This document shows positions 27,001-30,000 of a stretch of DNA of 64,000 nt, piece by piece (position 1 is the stretch's first letter; each line of letters begins with the position of its first letter). The position numbers were made by a program. Source of the stretch: an uncultured Verrucomicrobiae bacterium (GTDB taxonomy: Bacteria; Verrucomicrobiota; Verrucomicrobiia; Opitutales; JABDGR01). Location of the stretch: the NCBI GenBank assembly GCA_963765205.1, contig CAVXVB010000008.1, positions 416,001 through 480,000 on the forward strand, in the 5' to 3' direction.

Positions 27001-30000
27001 CGTTGCTGACGCCGATTTCGACGTAGGTGTTCACGCGCTTTGATCCCATGAAAATTAGGAACTCGGCGAATTCGCGGGGGTTTTGGAGGAGGCGCAAATT
27101 CGAACTGGGTTTGCCTTTGAAAACAAAATGGCAATGCGGCTCCAAAAACGCAGTGAGCCAAGCCACATCGCCAAGACGGGACTGGTTTTTTCTGAAGTGG
27201 TCGTAAAGCTCGAAATATTTCACGTGGGGGGGAAAAGATGGAAGACAGGAGTCAGGTGATAGAAGCCGGACAGCGGGGCCGTGGGGGGTGTTGATAAAGT
27301 GGTTGGACTGGGTTGGATTTGGGCAAAAGGCGCTGAGGAGCCAAGGCACTTAGCCGCAGGTGATTTCCCCGACAATCAGAAGGCGTTTGCATTATTTTAT
27401 TTAAATACAGCACATAATTTTTTCGGAATTATGCACTTCACAAAGGCCACGCTCTGACGGCCTAAGCTGGCCGATTCCCTGATTTTGGGGCGGCTATTTC
27501 TTGCGGGCCTTGGCCTTCGCCGTCTTATACGGCGGGATGGCCTCTGGCTTCACTTGCACGACCCGGCGCATCAGGTCTGCGAACCTGACGGGCGGATGGC
27601 GCAATTCTTGGGATTGCGGTTTCATGGCTACGCTGTCAAATAGCACGGATGGGATATAAACGCAAGGGCGACAAAGGGGTATCCATTACCCTACCAGCAG
27701 AGCTTGTGGACTATATTGAAAAGCGAGCAAAGCGCATTAACGGGTCTAAGTCATGGTATGTCGCGGAAATTATTCGCGCGTGGGTGGATGCTGGCGGGAA
27801 GCCAATCGGAAGGCTGGATGAGAAAATGCAAAATGACGAAGATGGGCTTGGCAATCCACCGACTCAAAGTAAAAAGTGATATAAAGCTGGAGCTACCGGA
27901 GCTTATGAAGCTACTGAAGTAATTTAAGTTACCGGAGCTAGTTCGGGATAATCGTGAAACCGTCTTGTCATTCGGTAACGTTCCCGTATTTTCTCACTAT
28001 GCCCGATGATAGACTATAAGTAATGACGAAGCTCGACCTCGAAACGGCGGAGCAGCTTTTGGCATTGAGGTTGAGGCGGTATGATGAATTGAAAGTGGAA
28101 ATTGCAAATGTGACTTCTCAAATTCAATCCTTAGTTGATGACATCGGTGCCGTTAAGTTAGAGCAGGCCAATCAACAAAATCTTGATGGCGGAACGCCTG
28201 CTAAAATTGAGCGTCCTGAAATCAAGACACCGGCCAATGATGCCGACATTCGAGGGCGTGAAAAATACGGGGCGGCGCGCAAGGCAATAATTGTCCTTTT
28301 GCGCGAACAGGGGCCGCGTTTAATAACAACGGAAAAAATGCAGGCGGAATTAAAAATTCCACCTTCTACATTATATCGAAACCTTACTGATTTGCAGGCG
28401 GATGGAGTTATTTCCAAAATTGGAAACGCATGGTGTTTTAGCGCAATGATAAGTTCGTCCCCTTCCAGCTATCAGGCATACATAAATGAGCTTACAAATC
28501 AAGGCTTCATCGCAAACGTAGATTTAACTGCATCACCCCCGGCAACCATTCCCTATACTTCCCCGAAACCCCCTAAGGCTCGGGGGCCTAACATTTCCAA
28601 CAAATTTAATATGCCTCCACAAAACGGCGCGGCAACCGGGTGATCCCCACTTAAGCGCGCCTCTGCAAAGAAATAACCCCCTAACTCTGGCCCAACTTCG
28701 CGGGCGGAACCAGAAAGGGGGTCGGTAATCCCGAGGGGCCAGATTGCTCTGGCCGCTCGTTCTTTTCCAATTAGCCTATGTGGTGTAACTGGCAGCCACG
28801 TCCGCCTTGGGGGCGGTTGCCTGTGTGAGCAGGCGTGTGGGTTCGACCCCCACCATAGGCATTTTTTATAGGATGACAAACAAAATTTTTAACCGAAAAC
28901 TTGAACGAAAATAAATTTATGAAACTGGAGATTTTTACCCTTTGCGATGAAGCGCATGAAGCAAATGGAAAGCTCTATATCAATGGGGCATTCCAAAATC
29001 TTTTTTCGGCTGGCTTCCCATGTGTCCATCCAAGATTTTGTGTGGTCGCCCGCCTTAGATTTATTCCGATAGAGATTGGAGACCACGCCATCCAAGTTAC
29101 ATTCAAAAATGAAGACGGCAAAGATGTGCTATCTATCCCCGTAATTGAACAGAAGTTTTCGGTTCAAATACCCGAAGATAAAACCTCCATTGCCCTTCAC
29201 TGCATAATTCTTATTAACGCAACACAATTAGGGGCACCTGGAGAATACATGGTGGGTTTAGCCGTTGACCGTTTGGCCCAAGCAGAGCTTCCGTTGTATG
29301 TGTCTCAAATGCCCCCGCAAGCGCAATCGCCGGAGCCGCCTTCTGTTCACGACGGGCCGCATTAGCCCTTTTTTGCTCTTCAAATTGGGAGGTTTGGCTC
29401 ATGGCAAAAATTTATCATAACCCATATTTTTGTCAACCCCCTATCGTAACTGAGGCGCAGGCTGGCTCCTTATACCGCAACCGCTTGCCTTCGATGTTTT
29501 GGAGTCCGGCAATCGTGCGCGCGCCGTCAGTCAACTTGCGGGTGTTATAGCGATGATCGAACTCTGCGAGGTAGAGCGGCAAATGCTTGAGGGAAACATG
29601 ATGGAAGGTGCCGACGATACCGCGCTTGAGCAGGCTGAAAAAGCCCTCCACAGTGTTTGTGTGAACGTCACCCCGGACATACTCCCCGGCAGAGTGATTG
29701 ACCCGCGCGTGCTTAAAGCCCTTGGCCGCGCGTGGGTAGGGCCGGAATTGGTCGGTATAGACCTTTGCGCCCTCCGCCACGTTGGCCTGAATAACCGCTT
29801 TGAGGTTGTTCCCGGTGACGCACGCCATGACGCGCGAGCGGGCCTTCCCGTCGCGCTGGACAAGCGAAACGACCGGAACCTTGTTGCCAGTGTAACGACG
29901 CCCCATGCCCTTTGTTTTGCCGCCAACGTAGGTTTCGTCAATTTCCACGGTGCCGTCAAACTTCTGCCCGTCTAGCACTGGGTCTTTGAGCGCGTGGCGG

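Follow-up and report, generated by a model that had tools for sequence, protein, structure and literature searches.

Natural tRNAs in which body and anticodon are mismatched are rare test cases for genetic-code change, and those known to us are chromosomal and confined to one lineage each. Among the tRNAs with unusual features, the allo-tRNAs have an 8/4 or 9/3 acceptor/T-stem geometry (12-bp branch) and serine-type identity, and tRNAProX reportedly has a proline-type body with anticodons for Ala, Thr or Asn and depends on a ProRS paralogue of its own. Leucyl-tRNA synthetase (LeuRS) ignores the anticodon. The tRNAs of phages and plasmids match codons that are frequent in the carrier's own genes, and in phage tRNAs body and anticodon agree. 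IS1595-family elements with passengers (ISfinder subgroups, e.g. ISNwi1) possess a transposase with DDE and zinc-ribbon domains, short inverted repeats, an 8-bp direct target duplication, which is a hallmark of the family, and 1–3 kb of extra genes; the passengers of which we know are protein genes.

Here we describe a new arrangement, a transposon-borne tRNA of the leucine type that is predicted to read a proline codon. It lies in the genome of an uncultured Verrucomicrobiae bacterium, within the 64-kb stretch of DNA that was analyzed (the window). Like the window's tRNA, the nev-tRNAs of nematodes (PMC4300185) combine a long-arm, leucine-type (class II) body with an anticodon that stands for a different amino acid, in their case Gly or Ile (CCC, UAU), and they are leucylated in vitro. 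They are animal nuclear genes which are not mobile, whereas the tRNA described here is bacterial and transposon-borne, has the anticodon UGG, and is accompanied by a conserved partner gene and by a transposase with a matching codon signature. For both, charging by LeuRS is predicted because this enzyme ignores the anticodon. The tRNAProX/ProRSx pairs of Streptomyces and relatives (PMC10404621) also involve natural bacterial tRNAs with an anticodon/body mismatch and have been read as deliberate mistranslation, but the logic here is the opposite, with a leucine-type body, a proline anticodon and no synthetase gene in the element. Allo-tRNAs (Mukai 2016, PMC5389517) form an irregular group with long arms and many different anticodons that is common in Acidobacteria and situated near toxin-antitoxin loci and transposon-related genes; the window's tRNA has instead a canonical 7/5 cloverleaf (7-bp acceptor stem, 5-bp T stem) with leucine-type features, and the terms UGG, LeuRS and IS1595 do not occur in the main text of that paper. 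The tRNA-Ser(CAG) of the CUG-clade yeasts (PMC11415595) is likewise a class II tRNA whose foreign anticodon renders a sense codon ambiguous, and in these yeasts the affected codon vanishes from conserved sites of the old amino acid. It is chromosomal and belongs to a lineage-wide Leu-to-Ser codon reassignment in eukaryotes, whereas the tRNA of the window is mobile horizontally, and its codon signature marks a single gene of the element and not the proteome of the host. As compared with the tRNAs of phages and plasmids, body and anticodon disagree, the carrier is a transposon of 2.3–4 kb, and the matching codon avoids conserved sites. In the full-text literature searched, which comprised neither subscription journals, ISfinder nor supplements, there was no description of an IS1595 element with a tRNA passenger or of a bacterial leucine-type tRNA with a proline anticodon.

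Structure of the tRNA and its identity

ARAGORN located a single tRNA gene in the window, with the anticodon tgg, and its Rfam tRNA score is 41.1 bits (gathering score 29). A preliminary description of this DNA had presented it as an intact class II tRNA of the leucine type, and the cloverleaf as drawn bears this out. The acceptor stem has 7 bp, the D stem 3 bp with the loop AACTGGCAG, the anticodon stem 5 bp with one U.U at its top and the loop CUUGGGG, the variable-arm stem 5–6 bp, and the T stem 5 bp with the loop TTCGACC; the discriminator is A. C32 and G38 could pair, narrowing the anticodon loop. The terminator-like hairpin upstream of the gene (Table 1) may be an attenuator or a processing site. 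In global alignments with the tRNAs of the host, the window's tRNA comes closest to tRNA-Leu (gag 59/79, cag 55/81, tag 52/84), again as described before, and the gene, a single copy in this genome, is indeed additional to a normal 77-nt tRNA-Pro(tgg) at C5:431989; the host also possesses five tRNA-Leu genes.

The body of bacterial tRNA-Pro is of class I, with the Levitt pair G15-C48. When set against the determinants given in a review (PMC9976931), the window's tRNA has all those of LeuRS (A73, A14, A15-U48, G18G19, A20a and U54-A58), with the anticodon UGG in place of the NAG or YAA of leucine; with tRNA-Pro it shares NGG (G35, G36) and A73 but not the body, since it has a long variable arm, G1-C72 and A15-U48. 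It also contains C2-G71. As the leucine determinants are kept and LeuRS is blind to the anticodon, charging is most likely mainly with leucine, although some charging with proline by the anticodon-reading ProRS is possible. The existing annotation of such genes as tRNA-Pro, which follows the anticodon, is probably wrong.

One could also regard the molecule as a true proline tRNA in a leucine-type body, which ProRS would charge through G35/G36 and A73 (with G1-C72 in the case of an archaeal-type enzyme) and which would help to translate a CCA-rich transposase mRNA in G+C-rich hosts poor in CCA and in the tRNA for it, with no mistranslation. We consider this unlikely, although several observations fit it. 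The host ProRS contains a ProRS-C_1 domain and is of the archaeal/eukaryal type, as had been proposed, and an archaeal ProRS is reported to read G1-C72, the discriminator A73 and the anticodon bases G35 and G36 (PMC9976931). Yet the leucine-type core has been retained (A15-U48 and not G15-C48, A20a, the long arm), and all three tRNA-Pro genes of the host have C1-G72 where the window's tRNA has G1-C72.

Organization of the transposon

The "small mobile island" of the preliminary description is mobile, but it is better defined than that term implies: the tRNA is a passenger of a 3,025-bp IS1595-family transposon (27424-30448). This is bounded by terminal inverted repeats of 23–25 nt and a perfect 8-bp target duplication, and its transposase matches Pfam Zn_ribbon_IS1595 (PF12760, 1e-13) as well as the DDE domain, and NCBIfam transpos_IS1595 (NF033547, 196 bits, cut-off 75); the features that mark the family are all present (Table 1). 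At the right end there is a promoter-like site on the minus strand, 30435 to 30408, with 11/12 matches. The element has inserted into an A+T-rich spacer beside hopanoid genes, duplicating 8 bp. The patch around the tRNA was correctly noted as low in G+C (0.44–0.52 versus approximately 0.61 for the contigs). The gene order that had been given, with the tRNA between a winged helix-turn-helix (wHTH) gene and the transposase, needs one amendment, in that a DUF6941 gene separates the tRNA from the transposase.

Table 1. Features of the tRNA-bearing transposon, in window coordinates.
Feature	Position	Strand	Remarks
Target-site duplication, left copy, AATTTTTT	27416..27423		Same octamer at 30449-30456, just outside the inverted repeats
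Left terminal inverted repeat	27424..27446	+	Pair of 25-nt arms 27422-27446 / 30426-30450, 96% complementary; outermost 2 nt of each arm counted to the target duplication
Ribbon-helix-helix (RHH, CopG-like) ORF, 76 aa, passenger	27649..27879	+	Pfam RHH_1 E 7e-4, 19.9 bits, cut-off 20.5
wHTH protein, 206 aa: coiled-coil-like N-terminal part, linker, winged helix-turn-helix	28023..28643	+	Weak Pfam HTH_24/HTH_11/HTH_20; just 5' of the tRNA
G+C-rich 7-bp hairpin, then T-rich tail	28737..28754	+	19 nt 5' of the tRNA; terminator-like, consensus match only
Leucine-type class II tRNA(UGG), 88 nt	28774..28861	+	Long variable arm, A73, no encoded CCA; ARAGORN, Rfam, alignments
T-run	28862..28867	+	Directly 3' of the discriminator base; read from sequence
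DUF6941 protein, 148 aa, second passenger	28919..29365	+	Pfam PF22091 E 1.1e-31
IS1595-family transposase, 322 aa, Zn ribbon + DDE	29433..30401	-	Convergent with the tRNA; Pfam DDE_Tnp_IS1595 (PF12762) 9e-36
Right terminal inverted repeat	30426..30448	-	Holds promoter-like TTGACA for the transposase
Target-site duplication, right copy, AATTTTTT	30449..30456		Read from sequence

A DUF6941 gene is also found 3' of the tRNA in element L025 and in the tRNA-less relative L096, and the neighbours of the window's DUF6941 protein in the protein atlas are DUF6941 clusters, mainly from Verrucomicrobiota. The RHH fold is frequent among antitoxins. No function emerged for the RHH, wHTH and DUF6941 proteins from PADLOC, NCBIfam or the protein atlas; in PADLOC the wHTH protein had weak HTH-type matches (E 2e-5 to a CARF-linked HTH), whereas the other two had no match. 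None of the element's ORFs showed a synthetase domain in Pfam.

The element's cargo half was absent from all 400 other genomes searched in the order, in keeping with the reported absence of the tRNA from relatives, and the only two other IS1595 transposase genes of the host are diverged (72% and 68% identity) and lack the cassette. Two public DNA runs of a single study contain contigs that match the tRNA without differences, but this may be the source sample and so not independent; contigs of one of these runs covered both junctions of the element. No RNA run with this stretch was found. Among the contigs of four DNA runs of one study over 26000–32000, none bridged the flanks without the element.

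Distribution of the tRNA cassette

In a wider search such tRNAs prove to be more than an oddity of six genomes, and the wHTH gene, an "orphan" in the preliminary description, is the tRNA's conserved partner. In species genomes a tightened tRNA pattern matched 19 places, 15 of which fold as long-arm tRNA(tgg), and an IS1595 transposase adjoins nine of these 15 genes; viral contigs yielded a single match, with the gene order of the other cassettes. What recurs next to IS1595 transposases is a cassette of a small coiled-coil/winged-helix gene followed by a leucine-type tRNA(UGG). Its holders belong to the Acidobacteriota, Planctomycetota and Actinomycetota, together with one deltaproteobacterium, one viral contig and metagenomes; the tRNA-bearing element is found in soil bacteria of several phyla. 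ORFs built like the window's wHTH protein stand directly 5' of the tRNA(UGG) in other elements. In profile-profile comparison the window's protein matched these upstream proteins weakly but in equal register (probability 9%, E 0.0036), and against PDB sequences a profile of the upstream proteins weakly matched ArsR-type regulators (E 0.002).

The end motif of the window's element is shared with seven related elements. Flanking 8-bp duplications were found for L007, L008, L011, L016, L017 and L025, and since these differ in sequence the insertions are separate; in all, such transposons have inserted independently in at least five phyla. In the transposase tree the carriers are scattered (at least three to five changes), apart from one pure clade of six, a pattern which fits one ancient cargo or repeated capture and does not tell them apart. 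When five host genomes were searched by pattern for additional copies, only one or two candidates turned up, and the acidobacterial elements are single-copy in their MAGs, in which repeats may be collapsed.

Metagenome loci were also fetched through the transposase, a sampling that is blind to the anticodon. Among the best 80 of 587 relatives there were 11 linked odd tRNAs, comprising six of class II with UGG, three of class I with UGG, one with AGG and one with UUA. UGG or AGG is thus kept in 10 of the 11, on long-arm and short-arm bodies alike, which favours a proline tRNA, as does the C1-G72 pair, typical of tRNA-Pro, in L012 and L023. The nearest relatives by transposase, L026, L028 and L029, carry short-arm tRNA(UGG) genes with U73, for which leucine identity is impossible by E. 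coli rules. Their transposases show the same CCA pattern as those of the other carriers (see below), so what is conserved is the anticodon rather than the leucine body.

The preliminary description had allowed for a decaying tRNA-Leu copy. In its fullest form this holds that a stray tRNA-Leu(UAG) suffered an A35G change and has no function; UAG and UGG indeed differ by one base, the gene is single-copy in its host, and the U.U that tops its anticodon stem and the potential C32-G38 pair could be taken as damage. This reading is now close to refuted. The stems are intact and compensatory changes occur at 21 of 23 pairs in the family alignment (the differences between the L028 and L029 tRNAs are compensatory), the same partner gene and transposase recur in several phyla, and the transposase bears a matching codon signature. 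Furthermore, the foreign UGG tRNAs are more alike than the host's tRNA-Leu: the window's tRNA is nearer to that of L024 (66/84) than to any host tRNA-Leu (59/79 at best), so it was not copied from a host gene.

In the acidobacterial elements wHTH gene, tRNA and transposase lie on one strand with gaps of 8–106 nt, so that cuts by RNase P or RNase Z would part the messages, and several relatives have odd T loops (UCCGA, UGCAA). Perhaps, then, the tRNA-shaped RNA decodes nothing and is a signal for processing or termination, placed between the transcripts of wHTH gene and transposase, or else a decoy or regulator RNA. We hold this to be very improbable, as punctuation needs neither a conserved anticodon nor a loop of 7 nt in which position 33 is U and position 37 a purine, and the adjoining transposase gene is enriched in the codon that matches the anticodon and in no other.

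Related IS1595 elements which lack the tRNA carry genes for PIN domains (four elements), restriction-modification (three), a SocA/Panacea antitoxin, a dCTP deaminase-like protein, and DUF4258 with DUF2283. Cargo of this toxin-antitoxin and defence type would suit a role in conflict or addiction, with a leucine-charged tRNA(UGG) acting as a proteome-wide poison that the wHTH protein represses and that is freed when the cell is stressed, a phage attacks or the element is lost, the link to the transposase being secondary. Also consistent with this are the regulator-like gene directly 5' of the tRNA, 6–14 nt away in some elements, and the ties of other irregular tRNAs to toxin-antitoxin loci and transposon genes noted in Mukai 2016 (PMC5389517). 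Even so, it appears distinctly unlikely, given the PADLOC results above. Moreover, the minimal elements L011, L016 and L017 (2.3–2.5 kb) hold wHTH gene, tRNA and transposase alone, and CCA is in excess specifically in the transposase gene, both of which speak for a role inside the element's own biology.

Codon usage of the transposase genes

In the transposase genes of 19 carriers, CCA accounts for 70 of 230 proline codons (30%), against 82 of 567 (14.5%) in 61 relatives, which include short contigs of unknown cargo (OR 2.6, p 5e-7, the counts pooling related sequences). For the A-ending codon of the seven other four-fold families the same comparison gave OR 0.52–1.35. Elsewhere the CCA share is 0.154 in host flanks, 0.08 in the window's flanks and 0.144 in the wHTH genes; the excess is specific to the transposase gene. 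A sign test on phylogenetically independent pairs of carriage against high CCA mostly pointed in the same direction but, with 6–7 pairs, was not significant (median p 0.125–0.375).

The CCA codons are also unevenly placed. In carriers, 2 of 68 proline codons at five conserved Pro columns are CCA versus 68 of 162 elsewhere (p 1.5e-10, related sequences pooled), and in relatives 25/226 (11%) versus 57/341. The split recurs in three subsets of the carriers (0/28 vs 34/83; 2/30 vs 21/58; 0/10 vs 13/21) and is absent from the seven other four-fold codon families. The window's own transposase uses CCA for 5 of its 15 prolines, 0/5 at the conserved columns and 5/10 at the others. Measured against the 11% of the relatives, the avoidance at conserved prolines is modest; the strong part of the signal is the excess at variable sites.

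A faithful proline tRNA would account for the CCA enrichment in carriers, and Pro is the best single residue aligned with their CCA sites (0.21), while Leu is not favoured there. It would, however, let the conserved sites drift to CCA as well, which is not what the counts show. The CCA pattern thus lends indirect support to a Pro-to-Leu mistranslator, the reading we prefer.

Two stricter forms of recoding were considered, of which the first is rejected and the second lacks support. For a "private leucine code", proline was found at 0 of 14 conserved-Leu columns in the 19 carriers. As to CCA serving as a leucine codon by design, the columns aligned with the CCA sites of carriers are rich in P/K/E/G/Q/S, and Leu is outside the top eight residues.

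Proposed role of the tRNA

The explanation that we favour, and to which we assign about an even chance, is that the tRNA is a translation-active and probably leucine-charged reader of CCA which is owned by the transposon and coupled to its transposase, rather than a stray or decaying tRNA-Leu copy. The conserved core besides the transposase is a two-gene cassette, made up of a presumed DNA-binding coiled-coil/winged-helix regulator and, after it, the long-arm tRNA(UGG). The latter would read the proline codon CCA, which is rare in G+C-rich hosts, and the transposase gene appears to be co-adapted, CCA being enriched where the residue is free to vary and kept from essential prolines. Transposase output could then be coupled to the element's own tRNA, the level of which may be set by the wHTH protein. 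Some low-level Pro-to-Leu ambiguity would then arise in the host as a side effect, or perhaps as a second, host-directed use.

A bolder version is conceivable but doubtful. It supposes that a family of IS1595 transposons runs a private code, in which its own tRNA makes CCA ambiguous between Leu and Pro, the CCA codons of the transposase are piled at tolerant sites and kept off essential prolines, synthesis of the transposase and hence transposition are gated by the tRNA under the winged-helix regulator, and the Pro-to-Leu ambiguity, being heritable, is passed horizontally between phyla; sister elements would do likewise with a stop codon (UUA) and other anticodons.

With a mismatched tRNA as a regular component of a small transposon that at least five phyla have acquired independently, an ambiguous codon could be passed on as a mobile trait. 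The CCA pattern is, to our knowledge, the first hint of an insertion sequence tuning its own transposase through a tRNA that it carries. If this is true, the element would be a compact natural Pro-to-Leu recoding cassette with its own regulator, and its counterpart in L047 one for a stop codon.

L047, a sister element, carries a leucine-type tRNA with the stop anticodon UUA. No anticodon-reading synthetase would be expected for such a tRNA, and its charging would have to depend on the body, which argues against a faithful proline tRNA. Among the few ORFs of L047, the transposase gene stops with TAA and the five others with TAG or TGA.

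The tRNA and its transposon

ARAGORN found a single tRNA in the 64 kb of the window, an 88-nt gene with anticodon UGG that scored 41.1 bits on the Rfam tRNA model (gathering score 29). Its cloverleaf is of the canonical 7/5 build, with a 7 bp acceptor stem, U8, a 3 bp D stem, D loop AACTGGCAG, an anticodon stem in which a U.U tops four Watson-Crick pairs, anticodon loop CUUGGGG, a variable-arm stem of 5-6 bp, and a 5 bp T stem with loop TTCGACC. The discriminator is A, the gene encodes no CCA and a T-run follows directly. The preliminary description of the tRNA was correct by ARAGORN, Rfam and cloverleaf, its sole omission being the DUF6941 gene between tRNA and transposase.

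The host genome (G000; 4.02 Mb in 12 contigs, G+C about 61%) has five tRNA-Leu genes and a normal 77-nt tRNA-Pro(UGG) together with CGG and GGG isoacceptors, all with C1-G72. On alignment the tRNA matches members of its family from other genomes at 66/84 (L024), 62/85 (L025) and 63/81 (L012) positions, against 59/79 for the best tRNA-Leu of its own genome and 52/84 for that with anticodon TAG. Since the foreign members are closer, the gene was not copied recently from a host gene. Public DNA contigs of one study, possibly from the source sample, confirmed its sequence and both element junctions; no public RNA run was found to contain the stretch.

From the inverted repeats (25 nt, 96% complementary) and the identical octamers directly outside them, we recognize a transposon of 3,025 bp with an 8-bp target duplication, carrying five genes (see table). 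A patch of low G+C (0.44-0.52) spans its passenger half and insertion site. No second copy was found in G000, although copy numbers are lower bounds because repeats may be collapsed in MAG assemblies; the cassette is missing at the two diverged IS1595 transposase genes (72% and 68% identity) elsewhere in the genome. The passenger half occurs in 0/400 other genomes of the order, eight of which have short matches to the tRNA part alone. The insertion site lies just upstream of a hopanoid gene set. A sub-threshold preQ1-II riboswitch match (26.3 bits, gathering 47, E 0.22) antisense within the wHTH gene is most likely due to chance.

Features of the transposon, its surroundings and related loci (positions without a prefix count within the window; L-numbers are loci of other genomes or metagenomes with a related tRNA or transposase)
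Feature	Position	Strand	Remarks
Transposon	27424-30448		
Target duplication	27416-27423 and 30449-30456		octamer AATTTTTT
Inverted repeat	27422-27446 / 30426-30450		
44-codon ORF	27495-27626	-	divergent from RHH gene, inside left end; read by eye
RHH ORF	27649-27879		ribbon-helix-helix; first gene
Coiled-coil/wHTH ORF	28023-28643		winged helix-turn-helix, 206 aa; second gene
preQ1-II match	28285-28380	-	
tRNA(UGG)	28774-28861	+	third gene
DUF6941 gene	28919-29365		fourth gene
IS1595-type transposase	29433-30401		fifth gene, convergent; Pfam DDE and Zn-ribbon domains; NCBIfam transpos_IS1595, 196 bits
Hopanoid gene set	30704-35084		
Squalene-hopene cyclase	30704-32884	-	hopanoid set
PNP_UDP_1 phosphorylase-family gene	32975-33946		hopanoid set
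Radical SAM/DUF3463 gene	33831-35084	-	hopanoid set
Short-arm tRNA(UGG), L026	5790-5862	-	short-arm set: 71-76 nt, U73, Rfam 52-56 bits
Short-arm tRNA(UGG), L028	1112-1187	-	as L026
Short-arm tRNA(UGG), L029	1178-1253	-	as L026
Long-arm tRNA(UUA), L047	1435-1523	-	Leu-type, ochre anticodon; within IS1595 element 127-3471
tRNA(CAA), L066	5572-5664	+	93 nt, GGAGGGA acceptor, G73, 8-bp variable-arm stem
tRNA-like gene, L074	2865-2977	+	Leu-type D arm and T arm
Second tRNA, L016	5908-5986	+	anticodon GGU (threonine), 8 bp acceptor stem
Second tRNA, L098	4476-4550	-	anticodon CGU (threonine), 8 bp acceptor stem, C1-G72/A73 end as in tRNA-Pro
tRNA locus of spirochaete MAG, L024	5981-6144	-	no IS1595 transposase
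Leucyl-tRNA synthetase gene, L007	8090-10669	+	Terracidiphilus MAG
Seven-tRNA array, G000 contig C9	1287772-1288740		outside the window

Related tRNAs and elements in other genomes

A pattern that required a D arm of Leu type, the loop YUUGGG, a long arm and then a T arm matched 19 places in 185,579 species genomes, and ARAGORN folded 15 of these as long-arm tRNA(UGG) of 82-96 nt. They come from Acidobacteriaceae (four), Planctomycetota (three), Actinomycetota (two), Alphaproteobacteria (two) and four single hosts, namely one MAG of Verrucomicrobiota, one deltaproteobacterium, one spirochaete and one unplaced MAG. An IS1595 transposase adjoins nine of the 15 (L007, L008, L011 (broken), L012, L016, L017, L021, L023 and L025), and in the only viral-contig match (L107) the wHTH gene, tRNA and transposase follow one another in that order. 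Six elements (L007, L008, L011, L016, L017 and L025) have the window-type end motif and are each flanked by their own 8-bp duplication, so that related elements have inserted separately; repeats are also present in L023. The smallest elements (2.3-2.5 kb) contain only the wHTH gene, tRNA and transposase. In L007 the element ends about 1.2 kb away from a gene for leucyl-tRNA synthetase, a single case and probably chance. A gap of 5 nt separates the L024 tRNA, the one most like ours, from a tRNA of 71 nt with anticodon CCG, and RlaP and UvrD-like genes are nearby.

In an alignment of 23 family members, whose consensus is the cloverleaf plus a variable-arm helix, 21/23 pairs show changes on both sides that preserve pairing, a figure that includes diversity from tRNA-Leu ancestors. 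Compensatory differences also separate close members (L007/L008/L017/L011; L028/L029). These changes point to selection on the tRNA structure, and that the gene is a dead copy we find scarcely credible.

Since the pattern fixed UGG, loci were also fetched by the transposase alone. Transposase relatives were encoded by 587 of 598 metagenome stretches, and the best 80 of these (44-65% identity to that of the window; many short contigs without the cargo side) were screened with ARAGORN, Rfam and a covariance model of 23 family members. Eleven of these 80 carry a linked odd tRNA: six have a long arm and UGG (L032, L041, L045, L046, L098 and L099), one a long arm and AGG (L086), one a long arm and the stop anticodon UUA (L047), and three a short arm and UGG (L026, L028 and L029). 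The short-arm genes, whose T loops are UCCGA or CUCGA, all pass Rfam, while ARAGORN called only that of L026; within the best 80 of 587, their transposases are among the window's closest relatives (65%, 60% and 59% identity, respectively), and the L028 tRNA has an acceptor stem identical to ours. With UGG in 9/11 and NGG in 10/11 of the tRNAs linked to these best 80 of 587 relatives, the anticodon is the most conserved feature of the transposon tRNAs, and the body varies. A FastTree phylogeny of 84 transposases places the carriers in scattered positions, apart from six that form one pure clade.

Three loci are possible further cases: L062 has a tRNA that was called as Gln(CTG), L066 a body of Ser type with the leucine anticodon CAA 1.2 kb from an IS1595 transposase, and L074, about 1.4 kb downstream of an IS1595 transposase gene, a tRNA-like gene whose anticodon arm is lengthened by a 32-nt insertion. 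Irregular second tRNAs stand directly upstream of the UGG tRNA in L016 and L098. The array on contig C9 holds seven tRNA genes (judged by anticodon, Glu, Gly, Lys, Cys, Trp, Pro and Asn) in 1 kb, with T loop GUGCRA in 7/7 instead of the usual GUUCRA, giving G at position 55; the L086 tRNA has a T loop of the same kind.

Related loci (L007, L008, L011, L016, L017, L010, L018, L032, L046, L028 and L107) carry an ORF of 108-208 aa immediately upstream of the tRNA and in the same orientation. Its N-terminal part is coiled-coil-like, a Pro-rich linker follows, and the C-terminal winged helix bears the motif LKRL...G.Y. In L032, L041, L098 and L099 an upstream ORF ends just 6-14 nt from the tRNA, which suggests co-transcription. 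In L010 and L018 the pair occurs with no IS1595 transposase nearby; the cassette can thus stand alone. The 206-aa protein of the window agrees in build and position but gave a weak profile-profile match (probability 9%, E 0.0036), so we call it analogous and possibly homologous; searches of Pfam, PADLOC, NCBIfam and a protein atlas returned no name for it.

CCA codons in the transposase gene

The transposase genes of 19 carriers (18 UGG, one AGG) were compared in one alignment with 61 relatives, including contigs of unknown cargo; the sequences are related and share sites by descent. CCA accounts for 70/230 proline codons in carriers against 82/567 in relatives (OR 2.6, p 5e-7, pooled related sequences). 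GC3 is higher in carriers (0.71) than in relatives (0.61), and the A-ending codons of Ala, Thr, Ser, Gly, Val, Leu and Arg are equal or lower in carriers (OR 0.52-1.35). The mean CCA share is 0.31 in carriers versus 0.16 in 22 complete tRNA-less elements (p 0.0015). CCA use is lower in host genes flanking carriers (0.154; 196/1275), the window's flanks (0.08), long ORFs of G000 (0.112) and wHTH genes (0.144; 22/153). The excess belongs to the transposase gene.

Within carriers CCA is used at 2/68 prolines in five conserved columns versus 68/162 elsewhere (p 1.5e-10). The corresponding values are 25/226 versus 57/341 in relatives (p 0.07) and 9/70 versus 16/102 in complete tRNA-less elements, and no other codon family of the carriers shows a comparable split (p 0.23-0.83). 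The carriers' split was reproduced in separate counts, with 0/28 versus 34/83 for pattern-derived carriers, 2/30 versus 21/58 for transposase-derived long-arm carriers and 0/10 versus 13/21 for short-arm carriers; the values are 0/5 versus 5/10 for the window's transposase and 0/4 versus 1/5 for the UUA carrier. A sign test on independent pairs ran in the same direction (4.0-4.2 versus 0.3-0.8) with just 6-7 pairs (median p 0.125-0.375). Compared with the relatives' 11%, carriers avoid CCA modestly at conserved sites, and the strong signal is its excess at variable ones. The carriers' CCA sites fall in variable columns; there the relatives show P at a frequency of just 0.21, then K, E, G, Q and S, with Leu outside the top eight residues; at conserved Leu columns carriers have Pro in 0/14. 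Frequent use combined with avoidance of the conserved positions of the nominal amino acid is what is seen for ambiguous or reassigned codons. Set beside these statistics, a non-decoding RNA signal seems to us very improbable.

Possible charging and proposed role

According to passages of PMC9976931, E. coli LeuRS needs A73, A15-U48, G18G19, A20a and the D/T-loop contacts U54-A58, G19-C56 and G18-U55, and neither anticodon nor long arm. The tRNA has all leucine elements of this list, and their positions are invariant or nearly so in the family alignment, an invariance partly forced by the pattern for the 15 genome members but not for metagenome members. ProRS, in the same source, recognizes G35, G36 and A73, in E. 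coli also G72 and G15-C48; the archaeal enzyme uses G1-C72, the discriminator and the anticodon. As the tRNA also has G35, G36, A73 and G1-C72, and the host ProRS an archaeal/eukaryal ProRS-C_1 domain, dual charging may be possible.

The retained leucine core favours leucine, as does the sister UUA tRNA, which could presumably be charged only via its body. Proline is favoured by the retention of UGG even in short-arm U73 forms and by C1-G72 in L012 and L023. A helper tRNA faithfully charged with proline gives conserved prolines no reason to avoid CCA, and we regard it as a serious but rather unlikely explanation. We propose instead, giving it about an even chance, that the tRNA is expressed from the transposon, charged mainly with leucine and reads CCA; the transposase gene would have adapted to it, and the transposase would probably be gated by the tRNA through the wHTH regulator. 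In this account the tRNA structure, element borders, recurrence, covariation, conserved anticodon and codon statistics are observations, while charging, decoding, regulation and an influence on transposition are inferences.

The finding belongs with anticodon/body-mismatched tRNAs, an already known kind. The closest parallels are the nev-tRNAs of nematodes (PMC4300185), the yeast CUG clade (PMC11415595), tRNAProX/ProRSx of actinomycetes (PMC10404621), which works the opposite way and needs its own synthetase, and the allo-tRNAs (Mukai 2016, PMC5389517), which differ in geometry and are linked there with toxin-antitoxin loci and transposon genes. The full-text literature searched (outside ISfinder, subscription journals and supplements) held neither a bacterial Leu-type tRNA with a proline anticodon nor an IS1595 element with a tRNA passenger. 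If the coupling of tRNA and transposase holds, it would be new in kind.

Complete tRNA-less IS1595 relatives carry 1-3 kb of conflict-type cargo, in view of which a host-directed, toxin-like use of the tRNA may be possible. A poison under repression, or an addiction module, unconnected with the transposase is nevertheless improbable in our view; the CCA excess lies in the transposase gene. The clade (L048, L052, L053, L055, L068, L073, L084 and L097) resembles a small carrier of conflict systems, its passengers commonly being toxin-antitoxin, restriction-modification or protease genes that amount to 1-3 kb. IS1595 cargo includes PIN domains (L048, L052, L055, L097), restriction-modification (L053, L073, L097), DUF4258 with DUF2283 (L068) and DUF6941 (L096), and a dCTP-deaminase-like gene accompanies the UGG tRNA of L032. 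The L047 element encodes a SocA/Panacea antitoxin alongside its UUA tRNA; its transposase gene stops at TAA, followed by 25 more open codons, and five other ORFs stop at TAG or TGA.
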